Shown here: in pieces, positions 7,946-55,499 of the stretch
Layout: the number at the start of each line of letters is the position of its first letter
How positions within the stretch are numbered: position 1 is the stretch's first letter
Assembly: GCF_004010195.1 (NCBI RefSeq)
Contig: NC_057718.1
Location: 102,009,901 to 102,065,399 of the forward strand
Origin: Chiloscyllium plagiosum
Lineage: Eukaryota
Direction of reading: 5' to 3'
Length of the DNA stretch: 55,499 bases
Translations under genes and position numbers: made by a program
The notes under the pieces: generated by a model
Seen by the model: only the letters and a program-made list of their open reading frames with translations
Databases searched by the model: none
Told to the model about the DNA's origin: nothing

Positions 7946-8021
7946 GAATCCATCCCCCAGACACGTTTAACACAGAAAAACATCCCAAGGCATTTCACAG
8001 AAGCATATACATAAAAATCAC

Positions 8022-8250
8022 AAATAAACCTGTTGCACTATAACCTGATTTGGAGCGGCCAGTGTTGGACTGGGGTGTACAAAGTTAAAAGTTACACAGC
8101 ACCAGGTTATAGTCCAACAGGTTTATTTGGAATCACTAGTGCTGCTCCTTCATCAAGTGGTTGACTGAAAACTAGTGCTTCCAAATAAACCTGTTGGACT
8201 ATAACCTGGTGCTGTGTGATTTTTAAGTTTATCCCAGTCCAACACCTGCA
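8022..8250. mobile_element. Palindromic Penelope-like non-autonomous element, family C (decayed)
   Basis: Inverted arms caccaggttatagtccaacaggtttatttg / caaataaacctgttggactataacctggtg, with a remnant ctccttcatca at the centre. Confidence 0.65.
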
Positions 8251-9650: not shown

Positions 9651-11675
9651 ATTGAGGTGTAGTCCTTGTTATAAAGTCATAAAGTCATAGAGTCCTACAG
9701 CACAGAGACAGGCTCTTTGCCCCAAACTGGTCTATGCCGTCTATGCTAACCCCATTTCCCTGCACTTGGCCCACATCCCTCTAATCCTTTCCTATGCATG
9801 TATATGTCCAAATGCCTTTTAAATGTTGTTAATGTACCTGCGTCAACCACTTCCACTGGCAGCTCATTCCATATGCACCCCACCCTCTGTATAAAAGAGT
9901 TGCCCCTCAGGTTCCCTTTTATTCTTTCCCCTCTAACCTTAAACTGATGCCCTCCTATCCTTGATTCCCAGCGCGGGGAAAAAGACTGAATGCATTCACC
10001 CTTTCAATGCGTCTCAAGATCTCATACGCTTCCACAAGATCCCCCCTCAGTCTCCCCTCTGTGATACAGGATGGGATTATAGGGACCATCAGCCTTGGAC
10101 CTGCACTGAGAATTATTTACACATGAACATTTCAGGTGCACGCACGTGTGACCACGTAAAAGGTTACTGAGGAAATTGGCGGCAGTATAATTCAAGGCAC
10201 AGGTGGGAGAAGAAGATGGAGCACCCAATTATCTGGTGCTCAACCCCCATACACTGTGCCCTGGCACTGCACTCAGTGCCCTCGCCACATGTGCGGTGAC
10301 GCTGGTACCGGGACCCAGCTGAAGAACACTCTCCCACAGAATTCTTCAACGGCATCCTGTCTCACACACTCATCTCTGTATCCACTCAACGCTTTATTCA
10401 ACGGCACTTGTCGTGACTTTTAACAAAACTGCAACCATTCCAACCTGTCCCAATTCCACTCGCCAGATCATAATCTAGAGGGCATAGGTTTAAAGTGAGA
10501 GGGGAAAGATTTAAAAGGGACCTAAGGAGTAACTTTTTCACACAGAGGGTGGTGCACATATGCAAGTGGTGTAGGCTGGTACAATTACATCATTTAGAAG
10601 GCATCTGGATGGGTATAGGGTTTAGAGGGATATTGGCCAAGTGCTGGCAAATGGGACTAGATTAGGTTAGGATATCTGGTCGGCATGGAACGAAGGGTCT
10701 GTTTCTGAGCTATACATCTCTATCACTCTATGATTCTAAAGTAAGATCTCATTTCTACTCACCATCCTCACTCACTATAAGAATAGGAACAGGAGTAGGC
10801 CATTCGGTCCCTCGAGCCTGCTCTGCCATTCAACAGGATCATGGCTGATCCAAGATTTTTTATGTCCAACCTCCTGCTCTTTTCCCATAACCCTTCCTTC
10901 TCCGACTGATCAAGAATTTATCTCAGTCTTAAATATAAACAAGGACTCTGCCCCCACAGTTGTCTCTGCGGCAAGGAATTCCAAAGACTCACAACCCTCA
11001 GTGAGAAGAAATTCCTCCCCATCTCCGTCTGAAATTGGAGCCCCATTGTTCTGAGACTGTACCCTCTGGTCCTAGCCTCTTCCATGAGGGAAAATATCCT
11101 GTCAGCAATGACCCTGTCAAGCCCCTTAAGAATCCTCCACCTTCATTCACTGCCTTCACTCACTCATGGCTTCATACACCCCCACCCAACCTGCTTCCTG
11201 GTCACCCTATTCCCGATCTTGTATCTGCCAGCCTCCCACTCACTCGCAGGGAACGATAAACAGCAAAGAGGCAGAGCAGTGAGAGGGAGGGAGCAGTGAT
11301 GAGGGGAGGTTTTGAGGCAGAGCTGAAAATGTGTTGCTGGAAAAGCGCAGCAGGTCAGGCAGCAGGTCAGGCAAGACAAAGTATATGAGCAGATGTCTGC
11401 ATTATTTATGCAAATCACAGCGCAGAAAGATCTTTTGTACAGTCAGAGATGATGCAAAGACTGATTGTACTCCTCTCATTGCGATCTGCGTCTAGCTATC
11501 AATGGATTGAACACTTTTTCAGGCAAGATTGGACAGATTTTTAATCAGTAGCATCATGTGGAAAAGGAAGGAAAGAGGGTTTGAGGGTTATCAAACCAGC
11601 TGTGAACTCATTGAATGGTGGAGCAATGTCAATGGGCTGAATGGCCTACTTCTGTCCTAGGTATTATGGTCTTTT

Positions 11676-11887
11676 GGAGAAAGTGAGGTCTGCAGATGCT
11701 GGAGATCAAAGTTGAAACTTTATTGCTGGAACAGCACAGCAGGTCAGGCAGCATCCAGGGAACAGGAGATTCGACGTTTCGGGCACAGGCCCTTCTTCCT
11801 GAAGAAGGGCCTGTGCCCGAAACGTCGAATCTCCTGTTCCCTGGATGCTGCCTGACCTGCTGTGCTGTTCCAGCAATAAAGTTTCAA
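11676..11887. mobile_element. Palindromic Penelope-like non-autonomous element, family A (young)
   Basis: 87-bp inverted arms 11712-11798 and 11801-11887; flanking direct repeat attatggtcttttgg at 11663-11677 and 11887-11901. Confidence 0.85.
11799..11826 (+). ncRNA. Minimal type I hammerhead ribozyme motif
   Basis: CTGAAGA-A-GGGC-ctgt-GCCC-GAAA-CG-TC: conserved core, 4-bp stem II, palindromic minimal stem III (ACGT). Confidence 0.7.
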
Positions 11888-12247
11888 TTATGGTCTTTTG
11901 GTCGATCTTTTGCTCTCTTTCCATTTCTGGCTAAATGGAGTTGGGGTACAGACGGACCCTGACCTGACTGAATGGCAGAAAGACCTCCTCCTGTTCTTAT
12001 CAAATTCCAGCCAGTGTGATAAAGAAAAACAAACACAGAGCAGCCAAAGATGATGGCATCAGCTTTTTGTTGTCAGTGTACATTGCCAGGTGACTCCCAA
12101 TTTGGAAATACATTAACCTTGACAGTTCATTGCAACCCCAGAATCCAAGCCCACACTTTACAAAAACTTCCTCACCGAGGCTACCAACCATCTAGCAAAG
12201 ACCTGCAGAATTCAGACACTGTGGATACCTCTCTGACGCACCATTCA

Positions 12248-12455
12248 ATGGTGAGCTCGTGACGCAGTGTGATGCCAGCAGGGTAGGTTCAATTCCCGCG
12301 CTGGCTGAGGTGACCATGAAGGACTCTTCTTTTCAACCTCTCCCCTTACCTGAGGCGTGGTGGCCCTCAGGTTAAACTACCACCAGTTGTCTCTCTGTAA
12401 TTAGACAGAGCAGCCCTATGGGCTGGTAAGACTATGGTGGCTTTGCACTTTCCTT
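12248..12455 (+). mobile_element. Second tRNA-derived SINE-like family
   Basis: B-box-like ggttcaattcc; body and tail (gagcagccctatg..taagactatgg) recur in reverse at ~38330-38520 and at ~26830-26905. Confidence 0.55.
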
Positions 12456-13360
12456 GAGTTATTCCTGGAATGGATGGGTTAGTTTATTGGGAAAGTTGGA
12501 CAGGTTGGGTTTGTATCTGCTGAAGTTTAAAAGATAAAGAGGTGACTTGATTGATTAAAGATCCTGAAAGGATGCAGGTGGCAATGATGTTTCCATTTGT
12601 TGGAAGAACTAGAACGAGGGGATCGCTGTTTAAACTGATGGGTCACCCATTTAAGACAGAGTGCAAGGGAATTTTTTTCTCACAAAGTGGGGTTGGTGGT
12701 TCTTTGGAATTCTCTTCCTGAAAAGTTGGTAGGAGCAGAATCTTTGTGTAGTTTTCAGGCAGAGGTAAATAAAGGTAGCGATTATACCTGCACTCGCTTT
12801 CTGAGCATTTTAACTCAGTACCAATCTCCTTTTCCCCATTACCCTGCACATTGCTCCTATTTAAATAATTATCCAATGTTCCTCTTGAATGCCTCAATTG
12901 AACCTGCCTCCCCCACATTTCCAGGCAGTGTATTCCACACCATAAAAACCTACTGGGTGAAAATGCTTTTTTTGCCTCATCTCACAATTACTTCTTTCAT
13001 AAACTATTTTGAATCTGTGCACTATAGTTCTCCATCTACTTGAATGGTGAAGAGCTTATGCTCGAAACGTTGAGTCTCCTGCCCCTCAGATGCTGCCTGA
13101 CTCGCTGTGCTTTTCCAGCACCACACGTTTTGACTGGGAAGAGTTTCTCCCTATTCACTCTGACCAGCCCCTTCATGATCTTGAAAATCTCTATCCGATC
13201 TTCCCTGAGCTTGCTCCTCTCCAAGGTCCTCACTTCTTCAACTCTTCCTCCTCAATGGAAGGTCTCATCCCAGGAACCATTGGTAAGTGAGGAATGGTCG
13301 GGGGAAGGGTGATGGAAGTTAATCGGGGGTAGGTGGAACCATGGAGTGATCAAATCCACA

Positions 13361-13690
13361 ATGGTGTGGCTCAGTGGTTAGCACTGCTGCTTCACAATAC
13401 TGGGGACCCGGGTTTGATTCCACCCTCGGGTGACTGTCTGTGTGGAGTTTGCACATTCTCCACGTGTCTGCGTGGGTTTCCTCCGGGTGCAGGTTATGGG
13501 GGATTGGCCATGCTAAATTGTTCAATTTGGGTAGATTGGCCATGGTGTAGTGTCCAGGGAATGTGTAGGCTAGGTGAGTTAGTCATGGAAAATGTGAGGC
13601 AGTGAAGATAGGGTGGGGAGGCATTTTGCAGGTTTGATGCCGACCCGATGGGCTGAATGGCCTCTTTCTGCATTATAGGGATTCCGTGAT
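13361..13690 (+). mobile_element. HE1-type V-SINE
   Basis: A box tggctcagtgg, B-box-like ggtttgattcc, V core, HER1-like tail. Confidence 0.8.
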
Positions 13691-13907
13691 TGTAATATTA
13701 TCGATTGGCAGAACAGACTTGAGAGGCTATCTGTTTTTCTCCTGCTCCTAATTCTGGTATTGATATAACTTATCATTTATATCATTTTAATCTGCCATAT
13801 CCTCATCTGCACTGAAGGTATTGAGAGGCTCTGGTGTTGAGGTGGGCCTTACATTGCTGAGGTTCAGTTGTGATTGTCAGCAGGTGACTTGACTGATCCA
13901 ACCACGA

Positions 13908-14123
13908 GTTGAAACTTTATTGCTGGAACAGCACAGCAGGTCAGGCAGCATCCAGGGAACAGGAGATTCGACGTTTCGGGCACAGGCCCTTCTTCAGAAG
14001 AAGGGCCTGTGCCCGAAACGTCGAATCTCCTGTTCCCTGGATGCTGCCTGACCTGCTGTGCTGTTCCAGCAATAAAGTTTCAACTTTGATCTCCAGCATC
14101 TGCAGACCTCACTTTCTCCTCGA
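13908..14123. mobile_element. Palindromic Penelope-like element, family A (young, opposite orientation to the 11676 copy)
   Basis: 89-bp inverted arms 13907-13995 and 13997-14085; direct repeat tgatccaaccacga at 13894-13907 and 14124-14137. Confidence 0.85.
13970..13997 (-). ncRNA. Minimal type I hammerhead ribozyme motif (sense in the pcsk2 pre-mRNA)
   Basis: Minus strand reads CTGAAGA-A-GGGC-ctgt-GCCC-GAAA-CG-TC. Confidence 0.7.
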
Positions 14124-15037
14124 TGATCCAACCACGACCCCACCTTCAACTGACCTCCAGACAAGTCTACACCTTCCCCCCAGCCCCTGCCCACCCCGCC
14201 CCCACAATTTTCCAGAAGGCACGATGCAGATAAAACTCATCATCCCTCCCCCGAATCAATTGTCTCACTGTTACTAAGTGAGCATGTGGAAAGCAGGAAC
14301 AAATGAACGAAGCAGTGAGGAACACGCATTGAGCAGATTTTCACCCCTTTATTGTTTTCATTTTTGTTGGGACGGTTTCCTTACTCTAGTGGCTTCATGT
14401 AAAATCTCTTCTCCATGTTTGTTACAACACTCCAGCTGACAAGAGCCAGAAATTCAAAAGCATTCAATCTCTCCAAAGGCGAGTTAAGTGTCTGGAGCAG
14501 TCATAAAGCCACAAACTCTGCAATATTCTGTGTTGAATTGTAAAAAACTAAAATAAAGTACATGATCTATTTTCGCCACTGTAAATAGAATGGTAGTGAT
14601 TCACACTTGAGGATGAGATTGACTGGGCACTTGAGAAAGATTGCTCCAATGATGATGATTTGGACACAAACACTTCTACCCAGGCCTCTAGAAAGCAGAC
14701 TTAAAAGCGAAATATTCACGAGGCAAATAAGGAAAACTGATGGTGTCATCTATTCTAAGCTGTTAGGGTGTGTTTTCCTGAAATAATGTTGGAAAAGGCT
14801 GTGTTTACCACCACAGAAACTTCAGAGGCTACATTCACTGCCCAATGCAGTCACAGTTCCTCTGATATTACTGCTACATGAATTTGCCTACGTCAAAGAA
14901 TGAGACCGCTTACAGTGTTCATTTTACAACGTGTGAAATTAATTCAGTCCAAATCTTTGGTTTGTGATTTGCTCACTGCCCCACTCCCAAGACTTGGCTA
15001 CATCACTCATTACCTCCTGGCTGCCTCAAAACCTCTA

Positions 15038-15163
15038 GGAGAAAGTGAGGAATGCAGATGCTGGAGATCAGAGCTGAAAATGTGTTGCTGGAAAAGCGCA
15101 GGTCAGGCAGCATCCAAGGAGCAGGAGAATCGACGTTTCGGGCATGAGCCCTTCTTTAGGAAT
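15038..15163. mobile_element. Family A single arm with mutated hammerhead core, abutting a family C arm fragment
   Basis: ggagaaagtgagg...gacgtttcgggcatgagcccttctttagg; the minus-strand core reads CTAAAGA instead of CTGAAGA. Confidence 0.7.
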
Positions 15164-15794
15164 TTGTGATTTCAAATAACCTTTTGGACTATAACTTGGT
15201 GTCGTGAGACTTCTGACTTCTGTTCACTAATGTCCTCTAGGGAAGGAAACTGCCAACCTTACCTGGTCTGGCCTACATGTGACTCCAGACCCATAGCAAT
15301 GTGGTTGACTCTTAACTGCCCTTTGAAATGGTTCAGAGAGCCATCTAGTTTATAAGGGATGGATAATAAATGCTCACCTTGCCAGTGTCTCTCACATTCC
15401 ATGAAAGAATAAGGGAAGAAAATATGTACTTTAACACCCACAATTTAACATAGTCCGAGAAAAAGCAATACCAAACTTTCTCAGCATGCAAATCACATCC
15501 ACACCGGCCTTTATCTGTACCACAGTGAAACTGTACAGATGAGACAAAATGTCACTCTCTTCGCTCCCACATCTCCTTTTGTAATGATGTGAGCCAGCCC
15601 CGCAGTAAATTCAAAGCAAACCGTATCTGATGCAAATTACATTTGATAACATTCATACAAAATTAGAGAACAGAAATGGACTTTTGAATTATCAGGTACT
15701 TTCAAGGGTTATGTTTTATTCTTTCTGAATTTGTTCGCTAAGGCTTGAATGATTGTTTTTGCTCCCTGCTGATTAGCTGACCACATTATGAGTT

Positions 15795-20050: not shown

Positions 20051-23000
20051 TGAATCAAATTGAATTAGCTTTATGTCGAGAGTATGTTGTTGGAAAAGCA
20101 CAGCAGGAATAATGAAGGGTTCCAGCCCGAAACATCAATTCTCCTGCTTCTCGGATGCTGCCTGACCTGCTGTGCTGTTCCAGCAACACACTCTCAACTC
20201 TGATCTCCAGCATCTGCAGACCTCACTGTCTCCTGAATTAGCTTACAGATCCTAGAAATAAATTAGAAAATAGAGAAAAATAAAGTTCAGAATAACAGTC
20301 CTTCCAGCCCAGTCTACTTTGGCAGTTAGCCACCATAGCCGGGCCTTGATTCTTGTCCATGGTCAGGCCGTGACTCCAGTCCACAACCAGGCCTTGACTT
20401 GAGACCACAGCCTGTCCTTGACTCCAGTCCACAGTCAGGCCTTCATTCCAGTCCAAAGTCAGGCCTTGACTCCAGACCACAGCCTGGCCTTGACTCCAGT
20501 CCACAGTCGGGCCTTGACTCCAGACCACAGTCGGGCCTTGACTCCAGTCCACAGCCTGGCCTTGACTGCAGTCCACAGTCGGGCCTTGACTCCAGTCCAT
20601 GGTCGGACCTTGACTCCAGTCCACAGTCGGGCCTTGACCCCTGTCCACAGTCGGGCCTTGACTCCAGTCCATGGTTGGGCCTTGACTGCAGACCACAATC
20701 GGGCCTTGACTCCAGACCACAGTCAGGCCTTGCCTCCAGTCCACAGTCGGGCCTTGACTCCAGACCACATTTGGGCATTGACTCTAGTCCCCAGCCTGGC
20801 CTTGACTCCAGACCACAGTCAGGCCTTGCCTCCAGTCCACAGTCGGGCCTTGACTCCAGACCACAGCCAGTCCTTGTCTCTAGACCACAGTCAGGCCTTG
20901 ACTCCAGACCACAGTCAGGTCTTGACTCCGGTCCATGGTTGGACCTTGACTCCAGTCCACAGTCGGGCCTTGACTCCAGACCACAGCCTGTCCTTGACTC
21001 CAGACCACAGTCGGGACTTGACTCCAGACCACAGTCGGGCCTTGACTCCAGTCCATGGTTGGGCCTTGACTGCAGACCACAATCGGGCCTTGACTCCAGA
21101 CCACAGTCGGGTCTTGACTCCGATCCATGGTCGGACCTTGACTCCAGTCCACAGTCGGGCCTTGACTGCAGTCCACAGTCAGGCCTTGACCTCAGACTAC
21201 AGCCTGTCCTTGAACCCAGACCACAGTCGGACCTTGACTCCAGATCACAGTTGAGCCTTGACTCCAGTCCACAGCCGGTCCTTGACTCCAGACCACAGCC
21301 TGTCCTTGACTCCAGACCACAGTCGGGCCTTGTCTCCAGACCACAGTCAGGCCTTGACTCCAGTCCATGGTCGGGCCTTGACTCCAGTCCACAGTCGGGC
21401 CTTGACTACAGTCCACAGCCTGGCCTTGACTGCAGACCACAGTCGGGCCTTGACTCCAGTCCATGGTCGGGCCTTGACTGCAGACCACAGTTGGGCCTTG
21501 ACTCCAGTCCACAGTCGGGCCTTGACTCCAGTCCACAGTCGGGCCTTGACTCCAGACCACAGTCAGGTCTTGACTCCAGTCCACAGTCGGGCCTTGACTC
21601 CAGTCCACAGTTGGGTCTTGACTCCAGTCCACAGCCGGGCATTGACTTCAGACCACAGTCAGGCCTTGACTGCAGTCCACAGTCGGGCCATGACTGCAGT
21701 CCACAGTCGGGCCTCGACTGCAGACCACAGTCGGGCCTTGACTCCAGACCACAGTCAGTCCTTGACTCCAGACCACAATCAGGCCTTGACTGCAGTCCAC
21801 AGTCGGGCCTTGACTGCAGACCACAGTCGGGCCTTGACTCCAGACCACAGTCGGTCCTTGATTCCAGACCACAGTCTGGCCATGACTGCAGAGCACAGTC
21901 GGGCCGTGACTCCAGTCCACAGTTGGGCATTGACTCCAGACCACAGTCGGGCCTTGACTCCAGTCCACAGCCTGTCCTTGACTCCAGTCCACAGTCGGGC
22001 CTTGACTCCAGTCCATGGTCGGACCTTGACTCCAGTCCACAGGCTGTCCTTGACTCCAGACCACAGCCTGTCCTTGACTCCAGACCACAGTCAGGCCTTG
22101 ACTCCAGTCCACAGCCTGTCCTTGACTCCAGACCACATTCAGGCCTTGACCCCAGACCACAGTCGGGCCTTGACTCCAGTCCACAGTCTGGCCTTGACTC
22201 CAGAGCACAATCGGTCCTTGACTCCAGACCACAGTCGGGCATTGACTCCAGACCACAGTCAGGCCTTGACTCCAGTCCACAGCCTGGCCTTGACTCCAGT
22301 CCACAGTCGGGCCTTGACTCCAGTCCATGGTCGGACCTTGACTCCAGTCCATAGCCTGTCCTTGACTCCAGACCACAGCCTGTCCTTGACTCCAGACCAA
22401 GGTCGGGCCTTGACTCCAGTCCACAGCCTGTCCTTGACTCCAGACCACATTCAGGCCTTGACACCAGACCACAGTCAGGCCTTGACTCCAGTCCACAGTC
22501 GGGCCTTGACTCCAGACCACAGTCGGGCCTTGACTCCAGTCCACAGTCGGGCCTTGACTCCAAACCACAGTCGGGCCTTGACTCCAGACCACAGTCGGGA
22601 CTTGACTGCAGTCCACAGTCGGGCCTTGACTCCAGATCACAGTCAGGCCTTGACTCCAGTCCACAGTCGGGCCTCGACTGCGGACCACAGTCGGGCCTTG
22701 ACTCCAGACCACAGTCAGTCCTTGACTCCAAATCACAATCAGGCCTTGACTGCAGTCCACAGTCAGGCCTTGACTGCAGACCACAGTCGGGCCTTGACTC
22801 CAGACCACAGTCGGTCCTTGACTCCAGACCACAGTCTGGCCTTGACTGCAGTCCACAGTCGGGCCTTGACTCCAGTCCATGGTCGGACCTTGACTCCAGA
22901 CCACAGCCTGGCCTTGACTGCAGTCCACAGTCGGGCCTTGACTCCAGTCCATGGTCGGGCCTTGACTCCAGTCCACAGCCTGTCCTTGACTCCAGACCAC

Positions 23001-25000
23001 AGCCTGTCCTTGACTCCAGACCACATTCAGGCCTTGACTCCAGACCACAGTCGGGCCTTGACTCCAGTCCACAGTCTGGCCTTGACTGCAGAGCACAGTC
23101 GGGCCTTGACTCCAGACCACAGTCGGGCATTGACTCCAGACCACATTCAGGCCTTGACTCCAGACCACAGACGGGCCTTGACTCCAGTCCACAGTTGGGC
23201 CTTGACTCCAGACCACAGTCAGGTCTTGACTGCAGTCCACAGTCGCGCCTTGACTCCAGTCCACAGTCGTGCCTTGACTCCAGATCACAGTCAGGCCTTG
23301 ACTCCAGACCACAGTCGGGCCTTGACTCCAGACCACATTCAGGCCTTGACTCCAAACCACAGTCAGGCCTTGACTCCAGTCTACAGTCGGGCCTTGACTC
23401 CAGACCACATTCAGGCCATGACTGCAGAGCACAGTCGGGCCTTGACTCCAGTCCACAGTCGTGCCTTGACTCCAGATCACAGTCAGGCCTTGACTCCAGT
23501 CCACAGTCGGGCCTTGACTCCAGACCACAGTCAGGCCTTGACTGCAGTCCACAGTCGGGCCTTGACTCCAGACCACATTCAGGCCTTGACTCCAGACCAC
23601 AGTCGGGCCTTGACTCCAGTCCACAGTCTGTCCTTGACTCCAGACCACAGTCTGGCCTTGACTCCAGACCACAGTCTGGCCTTGACTCAGACCACAGTCA
23701 GGCCTTGACTCCAGTCCACAGTCGTGCCTTGACTCCAGATCACAGTCAGGCCTTGACTCCAGTCCACAGTCGGGCCTTGACTCCAGACCACAGTCAGGCC
23801 TTGACTGCAGTCCACAGTCGGGCCTTGACTCCAGACCACATTCAGGCCTTGACTCCAGACCACAGTCGGGCCTTGACTCCAGTCCACAGTCTGGCCTTGA
23901 CTGCAGAGCACAGTCGGGCCTTGACTCCAGTCCACAGTCGGGCATTGACTCCAGACCACATTCAGGCCTTGACTCCAGACCACAGTCAGGCCTTGACTCC
24001 AGTCCACAGTCGGGCCTTGACTCCAGATCACAGTCAGGCCTTGACTCCAGTCCGCAGTCGGTCCTTGACTCCAGACCACAGTCAGGCCTTGACTGCAGTC
24101 CACAGTCGGGCCTTGACTCCAGACCACATTCAGGCCTTGACTCCAGACCACAGTCGGGCCTTGACTCCAGTCCACAGCCTGTCCTTGACTCCAGACCACA
24201 GCCTGTCCTTGACTCCAGACCACAGTCTGGCCTTGACTCCAGTCCATGGTCAGGCCTTGACTCCTGTGCACAGTCGGGCCTTGACTCCAGTCCATGGTTG
24301 GGCCTTAACCCCAGTCCATGGTTGGGCCTTGACTGCAGACCACAGTCGGGCCTTAGACTCCAGACCACAGTCTGGCCTTGACTCCAGTCCATGGTCAGGC
24401 CTTGATTCCAGTCCACAGTTGGGCCTTGACTCCAGTCCATGGTTGGGCCTTAACCCCAGTCCATGGTTGGGCCTTGACTGCAGACCACAGTCGGGCCTTA
24501 ACTCCATGCCAGACTTCACCTCGAGGCTCTTGAGGCCGGGAGAGCACTCTGAAATCAACTCAGAAGTTCACGCTGCGGTCATGCCGGGACGAAAGGCTGC
24601 CATGCTGGGCTGTGAGACCACCTTGCCATGGCATGAGACAACATGTGCTGCTGAGAGACTGCCACGCTGGGCCGGGGGGACACTACACCAGGCTGGGAGG
24701 CTGGCATGGTGGGGTGAAAGACCACTACACCGAGCCAGGGGAGCAGTACACCAGGCCGGGAGATTGATATGCCTGGCCGAGAGACAGCGTGTGCCACCGA
24801 GAGCCTGCCACAGTGATCTGGGGGGACCACTGGGCCGAGGAGACGCCTCACCAAGTCCACGCTGAGGCCAGGAGTTCAGGACGTTGGTGAGAAGAATGAA
24901 GAAGAAAGAAAAAAAGACACGAAAGAGAAAAAAAGGAAAAAGAATCAGATGGAGCAGACAATGTCCAGTTCAAATATCCTACCCTGGCGCCATCTTGGAA
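20051..25000 (-). mobile_element. Putative non-autonomous retroelement carrying the minisatellite
   Basis: Minus-strand 5' end CAAGATGGCGCC followed by a pyrimidine tract and a GC-rich repetitive leader; left end tgaatcaaattgaattagctttat resembles a reversed simple-repeat tail. Confidence 0.45.
20333..24506. repeat. 24-bp minisatellite, ~4.2 kb, roughly 174 units
   Basis: Consensus GGCCTTGACTCCAG(A/T)CCACAGTCG; register shifts by a 1-nt deletion near 23688 and is restored by a 1-nt insertion near 24355. Confidence 0.98.
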
Positions 25001-33114: not shown

Positions 33115-33305
33115 CTGGATGTCGAAGTGCCCATGTTGGACTGGGATGGACAAGGTCAGAAATCACACAACGCCAGGTTATAGTCCAACAGGTTTATTTG
33201 AAATCACAAGCACTCAGAGTTTACCGGTCGAAGGAACAGCTTGGAAACTTTGTGATTTCAAATAAACCTGTTGGGCTATAACCTGGTGTTTTATGATTTC
33301 TGACT
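33115..33305. mobile_element. Palindromic element, family C (decayed)
   Basis: Inverted arms ccaggttatagtccaacaggtttatttgaaatcacaa / ttgtgatttcaaataaacctgttgggctataacctgg; both ends flanked by ccttttttt. Confidence 0.7.
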
Positions 33306-37676: not shown

Positions 37677-37866
37677 TGACATGGAGGTACCGATGTTGGA
37701 TTGGGGTGGTCAAATTCAAAAGTCATGCAACACCAGGTTATAGTCCAACAGCTTTATTTGAAATCACAAGCTTTCAGAGCACTGACCCTTCCTCAGGTTC
37801 ACCTCTGAAAGCTTGTGGTTTCAAATAAACCTGCTGGACTATAACCTGGTGTCACATGACTTCTGA
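37677..37866. mobile_element. Palindromic element, family C, with degenerate hammerhead core
   Basis: Direct repeat ctctgtt(a/g)ccagtta at 37662-37676 and 37867-37881; minus strand 37768-37796 reads CTGAGGA...GAAA-GC-TT. Confidence 0.75.
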
Positions 37867-41000: not shown

Positions 41001-42034
41001 ATGGGAGTTTTCAGCACTCCGTCTAATATCAGAACTGTGTTAAATTATTGATCAGGTCAGTAACTGAGCCCTGACGGTTCTGCCTGGTTGGAGCTGAGTG
41101 ATGCAGTGTTGGGTGTGTTTTTTCTTCGCTGCAGTTCTCTGTACAAGGTGCCTTACTTGTTAATTTGGAACATCCAAATCAGCAGCGGAACTATTGGACT
41201 CGGGGTTACTGTAACAACAGCCTAAAAAGCACACACACGCACACACAGAGACCCACCCCTTTCCTGGGCACGACCCAGATGAGAATATATCCAAACGCAG
41301 TGTAGGATTGTGTGACTGGAGCTTCTCACGGCTGCTCAACCATACCTGCTACCATACCGTTCCCTGTGCACATAGAGGCATGTTAGAGCTCCCTTATACC
41401 AAACCAACATGACCAACACCATAACCTCAAACGCACAGTTAGTTCTCCACACTGTAGGTTATAAATTCAGGATCAGTAGCTACGAGCTGGTATGCAACTG
41501 AGCAGTGAATGTCACCCCAAAGAAGCTGGGGTTGAGGGGTAAGGGGGTTGATTTTCCATCAGTCAGGATCAGGGGAAGCCGTGTTGAGGGTGGTGCGGTT
41601 ATTCTCTAAGCTTGGTGAAGCTGGTAGGCAGGACATTTCACTGAAAACATGCAATGACCTCAAACCTTCCAGGGGAAGGTCATGTGAAACTTTCCCTCGT
41701 CAATGCCAAGCCCCGTGTGGGACAGAAACCAGCCAGGAACTGATGGCAGTAATTACAGCTCTCCGGCCATCGTTTGTGTTTCTTTCTCCACCAAAGTGCA
41801 TTTCAGGGGAACCTCTGTCATTTTTCTTATTGTTGCGTGTGATTAAAAGAGAGGGCGACCGTACCCTGCCGATTTTGCATGATAATCATTGGGCGAGGCG
41901 GTATGCGGGTTATATCTAAATTTAAAAAAAACAGAACCAGGAACCAATGTGCAAAATGAGTGTTTGCCATGGCTATGTTAAATCACATTAGGCATGTTTA
42001 TTTTTGCATGTACGTCCTATTGACACAAATACAC

Positions 42035-42106
42035 TTCCCACAATGGCATAATTCCCACAATGGCATAATTCCCACAATGGCACAATTCCCACAATGGCAT
42101 AATTCC
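42035..42106. repeat. 17-bp tandem repeat x4 immediately after the exon 1 splice donor
   Basis: ttcccacaatggca(t/c)aa x4 followed by ttcc. Confidence 0.95.
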
Positions 42107-42109
42107 TAC

Positions 42110-42283
42110 CTTCCTGAGAGCAACGAAGCCCGAGTCTGTAGCAACCCGCTGAGCGTCCCCATCTCCGCCGTCTAACTCCACCAAAAAGTGGTTGGTATAC
42201 AGTTTCTGATGAGCCGCGGTTGTTGCGAACAGAGCTGCATTGAGTAACAGAAGGAACCAGTCCTTTATAAATCCCCGCTTCAT
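42110..42283 (-). CDS. pcsk2: Prohormone convertase 2 (PC2), coding exon 1 (signal peptide and prodomain start)
   Basis: MKRGFIKDWFLLLLNAALFATTAAHQKLYTNHFLVELDGGDGDAQRVATDSGFVALRK|gtagga; hydrophobic signal peptide and the PC2 motif TNHFLVEL; 174 nt, phase 0, joins exon 2 in frame. Confidence 0.95.
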
Positions 42284-42660
42284 CTCTCTCTCTCTCCCTC
42301 TGTTGCACTGGAGAGGCAGTTACTGCTAACCGAGAGAGACCGGAGACGGAGGGAGAAGAGAGAGAGAGAGGTAAAGGAATGGAATGAATACAAACGATAA
42401 CAGGACCGTTACCACATGCACTTCACTGGTGCACCACTGTCAGGCGGAGGATGGAGCTATGCAGCTCAGAGGGGCAGCGCCTCGCTCTCCTCTCCCTCTC
42501 TCTGCGTGTGTGGGTTCAAAAGGATGCTACATGTTCCACCGCCGACCTATAATTCATGGAGAAAATCCCAGCTCCCTCACTGGATCATGTGGCAGGCACG
42601 TCAAAGCCATGAAGCATTCAGAAGCGGGTCCCCTGCAGGGAGGGAGTGAACCCCACACTG
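42284..42660 (-). promoter_or_regulatory. Probable pcsk2 5' UTR / proximal promoter
   Basis: Unique, CpG-retaining sequence with GA/CT tracts directly upstream of the ATG; the TSS cannot be determined from sequence. Confidence 0.5.
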
Positions 42661-43580: not shown

Positions 43581-44327
43581 TTTACCTCAGCTGGTGCATT
43601 GTGTCTACACCAGAGTATCTTCAGGCTGAGAAGAGATTTGATATCTACAAAAATAGAGACTGACGACAGGCAAAGGTCACTCAACCTCTTGAACCTGCCC
43701 CACCATTCAATAAGATCATATCTGACTTGATTATTTCATGTTCATGCCTACCCTACACAAATATATTTAGGAAGGATATATCGGCCTTGGGGGGGATCGG
43801 GGGGAGTACAACATAGGTTTACAAGAATTAAAATTGGACTTCAGGAGTTAACTTATGAGGAGACATTTTACAAATTACAGCTATTTTCTCTAGAATTTAG
43901 GTGGTTCAGGGATGATCTGATTGAAGTCTTCAAAATGTTAACAGAAAAAGACAGGGTAGATAAAGATAAACTATTTCCACTGGTTGGGGATTCCAGAACC
44001 GGGGGCATAGTCTGAGAATTGGGGCCAGACTGTTCAGGAGAGATGTGGGGAAGCACTTCCATACACAAAGGGTGGGAGAAGTTTGGAACTCTCTTCCACA
44101 AACTTCAGTGGGTGCTGGATCAGTCATTCATTTTAAATCAGAGATAGATAAATTCTTATGAGGATATGGGATATGGGTAGGCTGCAGGTCAGCCACTGAG
44201 TAGTGGAACAGGCTCAAGAAGCTGAATGGCCTACTCCCTGTATTTTCTAGGAGAAAGTGAGGACTGCAGATGCTGGAGATCAGAGCTGAAAATGTGTTGC
44301 TGGAAAAGCGCAGCAGGTCAGGCAGCA

Positions 44328-45212: not shown

Positions 45213-45399
45213 CTGAAAATGTGTTGCTGGAAAAGCGCAACAGGTCAGGCAGCATCCAAGGAGCAGGAGAATCGACGTTTCGGGCATGAGCCCTTCTTCA
45301 GGATTGATTCCTGAAGAAGGGCTCATGCCCGAAATGTCGATTCTCCTGTTCCTTGGATGCTGCCTGATCTGCTGTGCTTTTCCAGCAACACATTTTCAG
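45213..45399. mobile_element. Palindromic family A element with hammerhead cores on both strands
   Basis: Arms symmetric about 45306; minus 45274-45301 CTGAAGA-A-GGGC-tcat-GCCC-GAAA-CG-TC; plus 45311-45338 CTGAAGA-A-GGGC-tcat-GCCC-GAAA-TG-TC. Confidence 0.85.
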
Positions 45400-47856
45400 C
45401 TACTCCCTGTATTTCTATTTCATCCCCATACTTATTAAGTATCTATCCACCTTTGCCTTAATAATATTCTTACTGCTTCTATCAGCTTTTCAGAAGAGGT
45501 TTTCAAACACTCCCAACCCTTCATGAGAGAAAATAAATGTCACCTCTGTTTTATGTGGGCGCCTCCTGTTGCCAAACAATGATCCCTTATCTCTAGATTC
45601 TCCCATAAGAGGAAACACCCTTTCCACATCCACCTTGTCAAGATACCTCAGAATCTTAAATGTTTCGATCTAGTCACCCATTACTCTTCAAAACTCCAGT
45701 GTCTACCTAGCCAAATCGTTCCTCCTTAGACAATCTATCTACTCTAAGTACAGGTGCAGTAAACCACAAATAATGATGCTAACACTGAATACAGCACACC
45801 CAATGCCATCTCACCAATGCTCTGTATAAGTGAAATATAACCTCCCTATATTCATCTCCCACCCCAACAATAAACAATAATATTCAATCAGCTTTTCTAA
45901 TTATTTGCTGTACCTTCATACTAACCTTCTGATGTTCATTTAAAAGCTATCTGGACAGGTACACGAATAGGAAAGGTTTAGAGGGACATGGGCCAAATGC
46001 AGGCAAATGGGACTAGTTCAGTTTGGGAAACCTGATTGGCATGGTCAAGTTAGATCACAGGGTCTGTTTCCATACTGTATGACTCTCTGACTCTGTGACA
46101 CTCAGATCCCTCTGCATCTCAACGCTCCACAGTCTCTCACCATTTAGATAATGTGCTTTTCTTCCTTGTTCTTGCTAAAAAAAAAGACAACTTCACATTT
46201 TCCCATGTTATGCTCCATTTGGCTGATCTTTTCCCACTCACTTAGCCTCTTCATATCCCTTTGTAGTTTGATTATGTCCACTCTGTGACTTAATTTCCTG
46301 TCTATCTTTTTGTAATCAGTATATTTAGCAACCAAACCTTTGGTACTTTCACCCAAGTCATTTGTATAAATGTAACCGCTTGCAACACCTTGTCAACCAG
46401 AAAATGGCCTCATTAGGCCAACTTTCTCTCTTCTGTCTGCTAGCTAATCTTCCATCCATGCCAATATCCTAGCCACTGCATATTTATCAACATCCTTTGA
46501 TGTAACAAATGCTAACCAGCATATCCACTGGTTCCCCTTTATCTGCAGCATGTGTTACTTTCTCAAAGAACTCCAATAAGTTGTGCAAGAGACCACATAG
46601 TTTCTTTTTTGAGGCTATAAACTGGAATCAAAATTGTACCACTACATAAGTGAAATACCAGGAGTTTAGCACCTTGGAAACATCAAGTGTAGCTCATTGT
46701 TAGCTGTGACAGACAATATTGCTTTTTGATGCAGTGAAAGAGATCAGTCAAGATTAAGTAGGACCGAGAGTCTTGAAGTTAAGTAAATTCTGTCTGGCAA
46801 CAGCCACCCAATCAGTGGATATGCAATTTGTTATAAAGATGTACATGATAGGGCAACAGAAACATCAGACCTTGCGAATGGAGAGCACAGTCTATAAAAG
46901 CATTAGGGGCATAGATAGGGGAAATAACCAACAGCTTTTCCCCATGGTATGGGAGTCTAAAACTAGAGGGCATAGGTTTAAGGTGAGGGGAGTAGAGATT
47001 CAAAAGGGTTTGGGGGCAACTATTTTCACACACAGGGTGGTGAGTGTCTGGAATGGGCTGCCAGAGGTCGTGGTGGAGGTGAATACAATTTCATTATTTA
47101 AGAAACATTTAGACAGGTACATGGAGGGGATAGGTATGGAGGGATATGGACCAAATGCAGGCAAATAGGACTAGAATCATGGAATCATAGAAGCCCTCCA
47201 GTGTGGAAAAAGGCCATTCAGCCCAACAAGCCCAATTATGAAAACTGAGTGGCATGGCAAGTTGGGCCAAAGGGCCTGTTTGCATTCTGTGGACCTCTAT
47301 GATTCTATGACTGCCTATGATGCCCTTCCACCTCTCTCTCTTTCTGGGTGGGGTATGCAATAGAAAACCAAGAAAGCTTTATCTACCTATAATATGTGTC
47401 AAACTATAGGTCATGTGCCTGCCTTATTTGTAAATGAGTACGTATTTGGGGTTTTTGAAAGAGTGCAGTTTAAGTTACTTTGTAGCAGATAAGATAACGT
47501 CATTTTTTCTTTGCCTTTTTGGTTTTCTGTTATTGACAAAATCTGGTGTGAATTGCTTTCATCCTGAATATCCATTGGTCAGGCAAATTTGGCATCTTTG
47601 TGATTTACTTCAGAATTTATACATTTTGTGATGGTTTGTGTAACAGTCAGGCATATATATCAATGTACACTTCCCAATTAAGCCATGTCACATGGTTAAA
47701 TCTAATTTCTCTTTCTCAAAACCCTGTTGACACTGATTATCTTGGACTTATTTAAATGTCTTGGCTGCAATTCCTTTAATAATGGGTTCAAACTCTTCCC
47801 ATTAAGTGTCCACGCAGAACAATATGTGATTTTATGCCCCTTGATATTGGACCAAA

Positions 47857-51810: not shown

Positions 51811-52480
51811 TATGCCTACATCCCACAAATTTAAAAGAAAGCTTTTAGCTGTCTGTCCAAATATTGCCTCATTCTTGATAAAGGGCTTATGCCCGAAACG
51901 TCGATTCTCCTGCTCCTCAGATGCTGTGCGTTTCCAGCACCACACTCTTGACTCTGATCTCCAGCATTTGCAGTCCTCACATTTTCCATCGCCTCATATC
52001 TGTCTTAGTGTCAAACTGCGTTTGGTCTTGTGAAGGATCTGGGAGCTTTTTAAACCAACTTAAGGTGCTATATAGATGCAAATTGTGGTTATCACTTTAG
52101 TCAATAAAATAATCTTAAACAGGATTACAATATCTTTAATGAGTGAATTCTACAACCAAATCAAAGCAATCACGAGATATATTTTAACACAGTATTTCCC
52201 TCCTTAACCTGCGAGGAAGGGGCTAATTCAATTGAGATTCATTTTCACCAATTGTCATTCATCATCATTAAAGTCAAAAGATATCCAATTTTGGCACTAA
52301 CATTACTTCAGCCTACAAGCTCAAACACAAAAATGTGTTCCTATCAGTCAAATAATGATCAAAGTGCTGTTTCCCTGCTTCATGTGGAGAAAGTTAGGCA
52401 AATAAACAAGTCTGCTTTTGTAATTGATTTGCAACAGTCCTGTATTTATAAAGAAAAGATGTTCAGGAGATTCCCTGTGT

Positions 52481-54486: not shown

Positions 54487-55499
54487 TTTTTTTTTAATTT
54501 CAAAAATATACTTTATTCATAAAATAATTTGATGGTCTGTACAGTTGGTCATGCTATACATATGTAAACATGTACATATAGAGATTAGAATTTATCATTT
54601 TTACACAGGTCTGTACATTTTTCAATCAATGCCCATATGATTAGCTGAGGCATCAGCAGAGCCCAAATGACTGCGTGGGCCCCCTGTTCTTCTTTAGGCA
54701 GGCAGACTTTACACAGTGGTCTTTCCCCACCGCGCCTTGGCGGCAGCTGCCCCAAGCTTCAGCGCATCCCTCAACACGTGGTCCTGGACCTTGGAACGTG
54801 CCAGTCTGCAGCACTCAGTCGGGGTCAACTCCTTGAGCTGGAAGATCAGCAGGTTTCGGACCACCCAGAGAGCGTCCTTCACCGAGTTGATGATCCTCCA
54901 GGCACAGTTGATGTTCGTCTTGGTGTGCGTCCCGGGGAACAGGCCGTAGAGCACGGAGTCCCGCGTCACGGCGCTGCTCGGGACGAACCTCGACAAACAC
55001 CACTGCATTCCTCTCCAGACTTCCTCTGCATAGGCACATTCCAGAATGAGGTGTGTGACAGTCTCGTCCCCCCCGCAGCCGCTTCGAGGGCAGCGTGCCG
55101 TGCGGCTGAGAGTCCGCGCGTGCATAAAGGATTTCACAGGCAGAGCCCTTCTCACCACCAGCCAAGCCATGTCTTGGCGCTTGTTGGAAAGTTCTGGCGA
55201 TGAGGCATCCTGCCAAATGGCTTTGACAGTCTGCTCAGGGAACCACTCGATAGGATCCGCCCTCTCCTTTTCCCGAAGGATCTCAAGGACACTACGTGCT
55301 GACCACTTCCTAATGGACTTGTGGTCAAAGGTGTTTTTCTTCATAAACTTCTCCACGAAGGACAAGTGATACGGAACGGTCCGACTACTCGGAGCGTTCC
55401 GCGGCAGCGAGGCCAGGCCCATCCTTCGCAACACCGGGGACAGGTAGAACCTCAGTACATAGTGACACTTGGTGTTTGCGTACCGGGGATCCACACACA
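54487..55499 (-). mobile_element. Tx1/L1-clade LINE, 3' end (ORF2 C-terminus, 3' UTR, polyA)
   Basis: Uninterrupted 261-aa frame (54709-55494) with AWLVVRRALPV and the CCHC knuckle CPRSGCGGDETVTHLILEC; AATAAA at 54512-54517 (minus) then an A tract at 54487-54495. Confidence 0.88.

Follow-up and report, generated by a model that had tools for sequence, protein, structure and literature searches.

The question raised by this locus is what two short palindromes carrying a hammerhead ribozyme motif are, and how insertions of such a form come about. They lie in a 55,499-nucleotide stretch of Chiloscyllium plagiosum DNA (contig NC_057718.1, positions 102,009,901 to 102,065,399; the window) and are called A and B here. 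A preliminary description had taken them for a separate non-coding family resembling miniature inverted-repeat transposable elements (MITEs), released by ribozyme cleavage and inserted in trans by a Penelope protein. We found that the arms of both inserts are, on the sequence evidence, the pseudo-long terminal repeat (pLTR) of an autonomous Penelope-like element (PLE) with a Neptune-type linker, and that A and B represent its shortest insertions; the element encodes a reverse transcriptase (RT) and a GIY-YIG endonuclease (EN). As for their origin, we favour, at a probability of about 60%, a mechanism in which a protein dimer nicks both target strands, both nicks prime at two start sites on one RNA, and the two complementary DNAs (cDNAs) run off the 5' end of the RNA and are joined by microhomology. 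In the following, family 1 is the repeat family of A and B and family 2 is a second hammerhead-bearing repeat, signed positions are counted from core base C3 = 0 (window 11799 in A), with the predicted hammerhead cut between +27 and +28, and individual copies have L numbers. Genome-wide counts were made in the 3.56-Gb genome, and papers are cited by accession for the excerpts of them that bear on the point.

The link to an autonomous element was provided by copy L254, in which a 534-aa open frame (639-2240) scores above the cut-offs of the Pfam families RVT_1 (33.7 bits) and GIY-YIG (23.0 bits) and is followed 160 nt downstream by a family 1 arm. Among about 15,000 arms, 4,548 sites continue upstream of the core into a 3' untranslated region and the RT/linker/GIY-YIG frame, and 187 copies continue beyond the tail seen in B into the start of the open reading frame (ORF) of the parent. 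As the arms flank the autonomous ORF at both sides, they can be assigned as its pLTR. RT and GIY-YIG are separated in L254 by a zinc-finger linker, CNRRRCNTC (CxxxxCxxC), that satisfies the CX2-5CxxC motif joining RT and EN in the Neptune clade; the Nematis clade likewise has a linker motif (PMC8557442). The parent has further traits of EN-positive (EN+) PLEs, namely a pLTR with a minimal hammerhead and partial tandems, and an inverted 5'-truncated copy with a one-sided tail of 34-38 nt. The Penelope origin proposed in the preliminary description was thus confirmed, its proposal of insertion by an RT/GIY-YIG protein is supported by the presence of both domains in L254, and the autonomous frame that it recommended looking for was found ahead of the arm, as the RT and GIY-YIG part of an ORF that was not recovered whole. 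In two other copies (L231 4506-4712 and L226 4644-5119) the N-terminal part of the parent ORF contains a 36-bp tandem repeat (12 aa), which adjoins runs of N in candidate full-length copies.

A is a palindromic insert at 11678-11886 between identical 15-bp target-site duplications (11663-11677 and 11887-11901), the last 2 bases of the left one being also compatible with the end of the element's tail. On the minus strand A has a 34-nt tail (11676-11709), which corresponds to the span separating two putative reverse-transcription start sites (the tail concept is that of PMC11167929), and an inverted, tailed arm (11710-11798), which lacks the CU of the core because its inner end falls at +2 relative to C3. 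The direct, untailed arm is on the plus strand (11801-11886) and terminates at the putative start site 1. Between the arms, the junction (11796-11800, plus strand) consists of a 3-nt microhomology, TTC, common to both arms, followed by CT; read against parent copy L254, the short arm extends to -3 and thus ends one base before it would reach the hot-spot A described below. The minimal type I hammerhead core spans 11799-11826 on the plus strand, with stem II GGGC/GCCC and a predicted cut after 11826. B is at 13908-14123, between identical 14-bp duplications (13894-13907 and 14124-14137). Its untailed arm with the core is on the minus strand (13908-13997; C3 at 13997, predicted cut after 13970), and its tailed arm (13997-14085), sharing the one base 13997 with the other arm, and its 38-nt tail (14086-14123) are on the plus strand.

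The arms of B are 100% complementary over 89 nt. Aligned in opposite orientation, A and B are 100% identical over stretches of 123 and 89 nt, with unlike centres, CT in A and a single base in B. The two palindromes with perfect arms, an asymmetric extension and distinct 15- and 14-bp repeats are therefore as first described. The predicted fold of A is a single hairpin at -193 kcal/mol (z = -26; matched by 0 of 200 shuffles), in which the hammerhead is buried and helix I is down to 3 bp; in B helix I has just 2 bp.

In each element the core, CUGAAGA-A-GGGC-cugu-GCCC-GAAA-CGUC, is found on one strand (A, plus, from 11799; B, minus, from 13997) and has the features of a minimal type I hammerhead, i.e. 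CUGANGA, an extra base, G10.1-C11.1, GAAA and an NUH triplet. This call rests on our own pattern scan, since an Rfam scan of the window listed no hammerhead family at E<=5, only chance matches to miRNA-like hairpins. Conservation of the core is high: among 231 young-subfamily motifs with intact stem II, variation is confined to the free N7 and, once, the extra base, and loop II differs from subfamily to subfamily. The proposed core and the cut predicted after 11826 hence stand, but not the placement of the ribozyme at the symmetry centre; in A and B the axis of symmetry falls on the 5' edge of the core rather than in the middle of the ribozyme. By predicted energies, forcing the hammerhead fold costs +49.9 kcal/mol in A and +50.7 kcal/mol in B versus +1.3 in the natural copy L180 read from -4, and the fold would not be accessible in the own transcript of A or B. 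A motif located 3' of the cut was used to sample 100 arms: 92 extend across the cut site, 0 begin at +28, and arms stop at the cut site at about the background rate (0.0065 per base). Judged by these arms and predicted folds, the hammerhead does not release A and B, contrary to what had been proposed, and the two inserts are probably dead ends.

Family 1 is abundant. A pattern of two facing stem-II arms at most 30 nt apart was found 2,309 times and its reversed control 0 times; an exact 30-mer from the arm has 15,038 occurrences, and a 34-mer lying more distally has 18,119. All 40 scored matches to A, the best 40 of 468 candidates, are 100% identical over 209 bp, in agreement with the recent activity that had been suggested. 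At 30 A-type loci, A included, the duplications are 11-18 bp long and of 30 different sequences, and in a control 869 of 870 cross-locus pairs share at most 10 bp. The family of A and B is thus real, young and abundant, and it belongs to a known kind. A fixed master copy, suggested by the first 40 matches to A, was dropped, as these had been chosen for best fit and the centres vary genome-wide.

The centres were informative on how the palindromes form. Among 50 listed palindromes we counted by eye about 30 different centres, nearly all of which can be read as two arms that end at most about 10 bases apart and are joined via 1-3 common bases or by a small number of added bases. The same set of junctions, those of A and B included, is seen in the 243 palindromes of a sister subfamily, which is set apart by five linked differences, and the occurrence of the same junctions in two subfamilies means that they arise repeatedly. 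Only 9 palindromes are mixed at the subfamily-diagnostic base, against about 447 expected with independent pairing of arms (from 2,309/243/9); among the 9, the hybrid state extends to all sites in L291 alone, L288 is ambiguous and 7 have single-site changes. Rare variants are present on both arms in 8 of 50 copies. Both observations favour copying of the two arms from one template. Together with the heterogeneous centres, the identity of the arms with the end of an autonomous element does away with the separate MITE-like palindromic family.

Outer arm ends occur at two places about 35 nt apart, and their combination is not free. In 74 palindromes there were 63 with one tailed and one untailed arm, 0 with two tailed arms, 1 with two short arms and 10 unclassed, in which the ungapped extension ended early; non-inverted arms are short, tailed or other in a ratio of 12:12:2. 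In the 63 palindromes the tailed arm reaches further inward in 26, the untailed arm in 28 and both equally in 9, A and B being of the untailed-further kind. Since either arm may extend further inward, simple fold-back of one strand is excluded. The short arms of both families end at the same motif, AACT then TTG (window 14078-14090; L350-L399), and GCATCT is present in the tails of both, which makes these motifs a candidate common start-site signal.

Inner ends are concentrated in a narrow zone. Of 100 unbiased arms 76 end at -7 to +8, with a mode at -4 (50 inverted and 26 not inverted), and 24 are long. The stopping rate is 0.236 per base at -6 to -3 versus about 0.01 further upstream, and 0.245 in a second sample; copies L081-L110, which have a search-motif bias, were excluded from the rate estimates. 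Position -4 is the first base of helix I and also the A of an initiator-like CTC-A-TT. In older subfamilies CTC-ATTCC is retained despite incomplete pairing of helix I, and a TTTAT box at -30 to -33 is kept across diverged spacers. Copies that pass the tail often jump back to the boundary zone, each at its own junction, as would be expected if RT reaches the end of its template and jumps; template jumping by an RT has been described (PMC8857657). Two copies that share their host cargo as well as a private arm variant both stop at -5 and have different junctions. Splicing as the source of the boundary was rejected, as the boundary A has no preceding AG. These data point to an RNA start at the boundary A. 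In the RNA data at hand, one poly(A) single-cell run (X19) of which about 2% was read and which is not a 5'-end library, 21 reads have loose ends at the boundary (L254:2395), matching the expectation for read-through of genomic stubs, and no circular-RNA joints were listed in the raw reads of the stretch examined, the library being unsuited to circles.

An extra G at such an end is a signature of RT copying the cap. Family 1 joins at the boundary A have an extra G in 7 of 12 cases (P 0.002 or 0.07, depending on the null). A literature search for cap-derived G gave nothing usable; R2 RT adds mostly A (PMC8857657).

Family 2 was examined for the same features. It has 3,013 head-to-head palindromes genome-wide, and 48 of 50 have one tailed and one untailed arm, with the tailed arm further inward in 23, the untailed in 19 and both equal in 6; an exact flanking match of 8-17 bp was found in 38 of the 48 one-tailed copies and none in 10. 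Its upstream peak of ends, at -8 (15 of 100 arms), is at an initiator-like A (CC-A-CAAT), 5 bases beyond its 3-bp helix I, and in read-through copy L252 a TATAAA is situated 32 nt upstream of this A. At the peak A, 14 of 14 joins made without overlap show G in place of the C of the template copy (P ~3e-6, null 0.4), two of the 14 being both arms of one copy. In X19, 553 and 323 reads have poly(T) loose ends at L252:1199 and 1202 (+58 and +55 from C3), 12-15 nt past an AATAAA of family 2. Family 2 thus has a used poly(A) site between the hammerhead and the first outer end, and the reads ending there may be host transcripts that end in any copy. A third type of hammerhead repeat (L007, L017, L137, L154, L243; L029, L189, L258) has a longer stem II and a TATAAA upstream in read-through copies.

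The mechanism that we favour for family 1 begins with an observed step: the arms are the terminal repeat of the element, and the same sequence ends the RT and GIY-YIG frame. The protein, probably a dimer, would nick both target strands about 14 bp apart, a distance suggested by the 11-18 bp duplications and by the in vitro behaviour of the anole PLE. Priming from one nick would begin at start site 1 and from the other at start site 2, which on the same RNA lies about 35 nt to the 3' side, and the tail would be the gap between the two sites. The template would be one uncleaved sense RNA with a predicted start about 4 bases before the hammerhead core, at the initiator-like A, and probably capped. 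Priming within the 5' repeat copy of this RNA would let both cDNAs run off after about 93 and 128 nt, and in this they would resemble retroviral strong-stop DNA. Their 3' ends may then anneal by 1-3 nt, or be joined via added or slipped bases, followed by fill-in, and the outcome would be a head-to-head palindrome with one tail, likely formed anew per insertion; capture of a single cDNA would give a solo stub of 93 or 128 bp. The hammerhead would come to the palindrome centre because it lies at the front end of the RNA.

Tentatively, this may be one rule for PLEs at large: a single capped RNA on which a dimer primes both strands, one subunit per start site, from which the inverted copy plus tail, a hallmark of all EN+ PLEs, would follow. 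The pLTR would then be laid out like a retroviral LTR, with the promoter upstream, the RNA start before the hammerhead, the primer sites downstream and, in family 2, the poly(A) site between. The usual outcome of an event would be a head-to-head pair of strong-stop-like cDNAs, and the ends of the template would be made without the hammerhead.

The closest alternative in form keeps the double priming and places it on the 3' repeat of a long RNA, with RT stalling at a protein or structure roadblock at the 5' edge of the hammerhead. We consider this unlikely, although the modal stop in family 1 coincides exactly with the first base of helix I, the boundary is passed by 24 of 100 arms, and the anole protein aids hammerhead folding and may thus contact the region (PMC11167929). 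An RT moving 3' to 5' would, however, unwind helix I before meeting its 5' strand, and the upstream sequence is pyrimidine-rich with no evident pairing partner; in family 2 the peak lies past helix I and tracks the initiator-like A, with the TATAAA at -32 and the G at all 14 joins. Fold-back and self-priming of one cDNA, or of an antisense RNA, with the endonuclease resolving the hairpin at site 1, would account for the identical arms, the absence of two-tailed copies and the microhomologies, and slippage in some centres resembles snap-back. It is also the published reading of head-to-head PLE palindromes, with an antisense RNA proposed (PMC3846280) and EN-mediated resolution favoured by Craig et al. 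(PMC8557442). To us it appears improbable, as fold-back of a tailed cDNA needs the tailed arm to reach further in, whereas the arm that reaches further is the untailed one in 28 of 63 palindromes of family 1, in 19 of 48 of family 2 and in A and B themselves; furthermore, self-priming does not account for the solo stubs, in which the same inner boundary and both outer ends are found.

We regard the model of the preliminary description, in which the palindrome is a non-autonomous family that is transcribed whole, excised by its hammerhead and inserted in trans, as very improbable. At least 40 copies are identical to A over 209 bp, each scored and fetched copy with its own duplication, some junctions have been re-copied in composites, and tandem retrozyme-like derivatives exist, all of which would fit that model. 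Against it, there are many centres and they recur in two subfamilies, the cut at 11826 would split A and 0 of 100 arms begin there, and about +50 kcal/mol would be needed to force the hammerhead in A and B versus +1.3 in a natural copy; moreover, the palindromes end at the tail, and the anole protein needed RNA past its start sites (PMC11167929). The long inverted arms and the small, non-coding form would suit a MITE or foldback DNA transposon too, a reading to which we give almost no weight: the duplications are variable, not fixed and short, the ends are asymmetric with a one-sided tail, the centres vary where symmetric terminal inverted repeats would surround a constant interior, and the arms are identical to the end of an RT and GIY-YIG element.

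Several observations weigh against double priming with run-off at a capped RNA start. Some head-to-head junctions have been re-copied in cargo composites, with identical centres of 141-202 bp at different loci; 'always anew' would therefore be too strong, and some of the at least 40 A-identical copies could be re-copies. The scarcity of hybrids could stem from the subfamilies having been active at different times, and the samples of 50-100 arms or palindromes were drawn from the first 20-60 Mb of one contig. RNA molecules starting at the boundary were sought in the raw X19 reads for family 1 and L252 and none were seen, which the roadblock would explain. In solo copies the base at the boundary is not enriched for G (G 3, T 4, A 4 of 11 non-C; in a second set G 4, T 5), the G excess of family 1 is weak under a 1/3 null (P = 0.07), many of its junctions are equally readable as addition of G to the cDNA, and a base preference of the PLE RT, rather than the cap, could explain the extra G. 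The upstream box of family 1 is a poor TATA box and the match to a downstream promoter element is poor (cf. PMC2377424), and in Penelope of D. virilis the transcription start is considerably upstream of helix I and separated from it by an intron (PMC4209133, PMC2377424). In family 2 the ends spread from -13 to +1, with 16 of 100 at +1 and 15 at -8. Finally, a search for a complete parent ORF or an intact full-length copy found none, the candidates having N runs or host cargo.

The composites themselves (L205 393-3401, L210 368-2017, L226, L138-L140 and L230/L232 1482-4862) consist of an inverted tailed arm, a direct arm, cargo and the 3' repeat; L205, L210 and L230 have flanking repeats of 12-14 bp. 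Their cargo, 2-3 kb of non-coding DNA, is 100% identical on different chromosomes, from which it follows that host-like DNA is being spread by family 1. Head-to-tail units of 194-224 bp, made of the hammerhead, the tail and the first ORF bases, were also seen (L172/L173, L182-L184, L207 and L203); the L207 tandem is at G000:C8:24157000-24159500, and one tandem junction is repeated at several loci. These units are retrozyme-like derivatives and possible non-autonomous sources.

The preliminary description had seen in A and B the best candidate for an under-described system. Their architecture is already known, and their interest lies in the junction statistics that bear on PLE insertion. Insertions of EN+ PLEs have an inverted 5'-truncated copy, a tail of 30-40 bp and a target-site duplication (PMC8557442, PMC3846280), and they share with A and B the head-to-head inverted pLTR, the one-sided tail, the palindromic or overlapping junction and, between pLTRs, host DNA. 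A and B differ in being minimal in form and in having thousands of near-identical copies, which makes junction statistics readable. The explanation given in these excerpts is antisense self-priming or EN resolution, whereas our counts favour two sense-primed cDNAs. The anole PLE (Poseidon, PAc) nicks and extends both strands in vitro, has an internal RT start site at either side of the tail, is predicted to act as a dimer and uses uncleaved RNA (PMC11167929); the pairing of two outer ends found here matches both its start sites bounding the tail and its extension of both target strands. The excerpts of that study do not tie the double extension to inverted copies and report neither coupling of the sites nor run-off, and PAc belongs to Poseidon, while the parent described here has a Neptune-type linker.

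Metazoan PLEs are known to have minimal hammerheads, among them opposite-strand pairs 100-700 bp apart (PMC4209133). Ours resemble these in the extra base between A9 and G10.1, in G10.1-C11.1, in the palindromic 15.2-16.2 and in the 4-bp helix I of the parent, and A and B depart from them in having a helix I of 3 and 2 bp and a motif buried in a hairpin of about 88 bp. Non-LTR retrozymes (bioRxiv 10.64898/2026.07.22.740005; PMC7229834) are likewise short, non-coding and PLE-derived with a type I hammerhead; as far as the first of these sources describes them they are head-to-tail tandems, whereas A and B are single head-to-head units, and family 1 tandems exist elsewhere (L172/L173, L207).

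Two processes outside the PLEs offer a comparison. In LINE-1 twin priming a second nick primes on the same RNA and gives an inversion, and in retroviruses minus-strand strong-stop DNA is a short cDNA whose synthesis ends by run-off at the 5' end of the RNA. In twin priming the inverted segment comes from another part of the RNA, whereas the two primers proposed here would copy the same part, and the result would be a mirror image. Our search of the open literature, with subscription journals and Repbase outside its scope, found no paper stating coupled double priming with run-off.

Elsewhere in the window, a head-to-head copy of an older subfamily of the same lineage (45214-45401; 86% identity) has both arms with the core, and one arm begins at the same boundary A, with a G before it. 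An older single arm with tail, also at 86%, is found at 15034-15156 on the minus strand, and further old fragments of the family 1 lineage, 72-89% identical to the young arm, are at 11318-11364, 13049-13120, 20125-20234, 44246-44327 and 51881-51987. Family 2 has copies at 8021-8250, 33128-33305, 37690-37852 and 15165-15227, three of them with facing arms. A search of the window for pieces of the parent ORF gave none. The long ORFs at 20339-24865 were considered as a nearby parent and rejected, as they are a 24-bp minisatellite; the array (20339-24500, about 4.1 kb) has long open frames on both strands and its Pfam matches are low-complexity repeats. At 42020-42319 (minus) there is a match to the Peptidase S8 pro-domain (E 1.9e-4, below cut-off); it may represent an exon of a proprotein-convertase-like gene, in which case the region would be intronic. 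Both ends of the window, 2-1064 and 54712-55497 (both minus), contain fragments of long interspersed elements with pieces of APE endonuclease and RT, and zf-RVT.

In themselves A and B are ordinary Penelope debris, and their worth lies in the natural experiment of which they are part. Both PMC8557442 (in its section 15) and PMC3846280 name the origin of the inverted repeats and one-sided tail of PLEs as an open question, and in the 2024 in vitro study the steps that follow priming are left without validation (PMC11167929). Thousands of nearly unmutated junctions lead to sharp predictions for the existing PLE assay, namely that one RNA would serve two different start sites, that either arm may be the longer, and that synthesis would stop at the capped start. 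Within family 1, the counts speak against the proposed role of the hammerhead in template cutting. For the genome of C. plagiosum, the finding means that family 1 has very recently spread thousands of perfect hairpins of about 90 bp, together with some host DNA.

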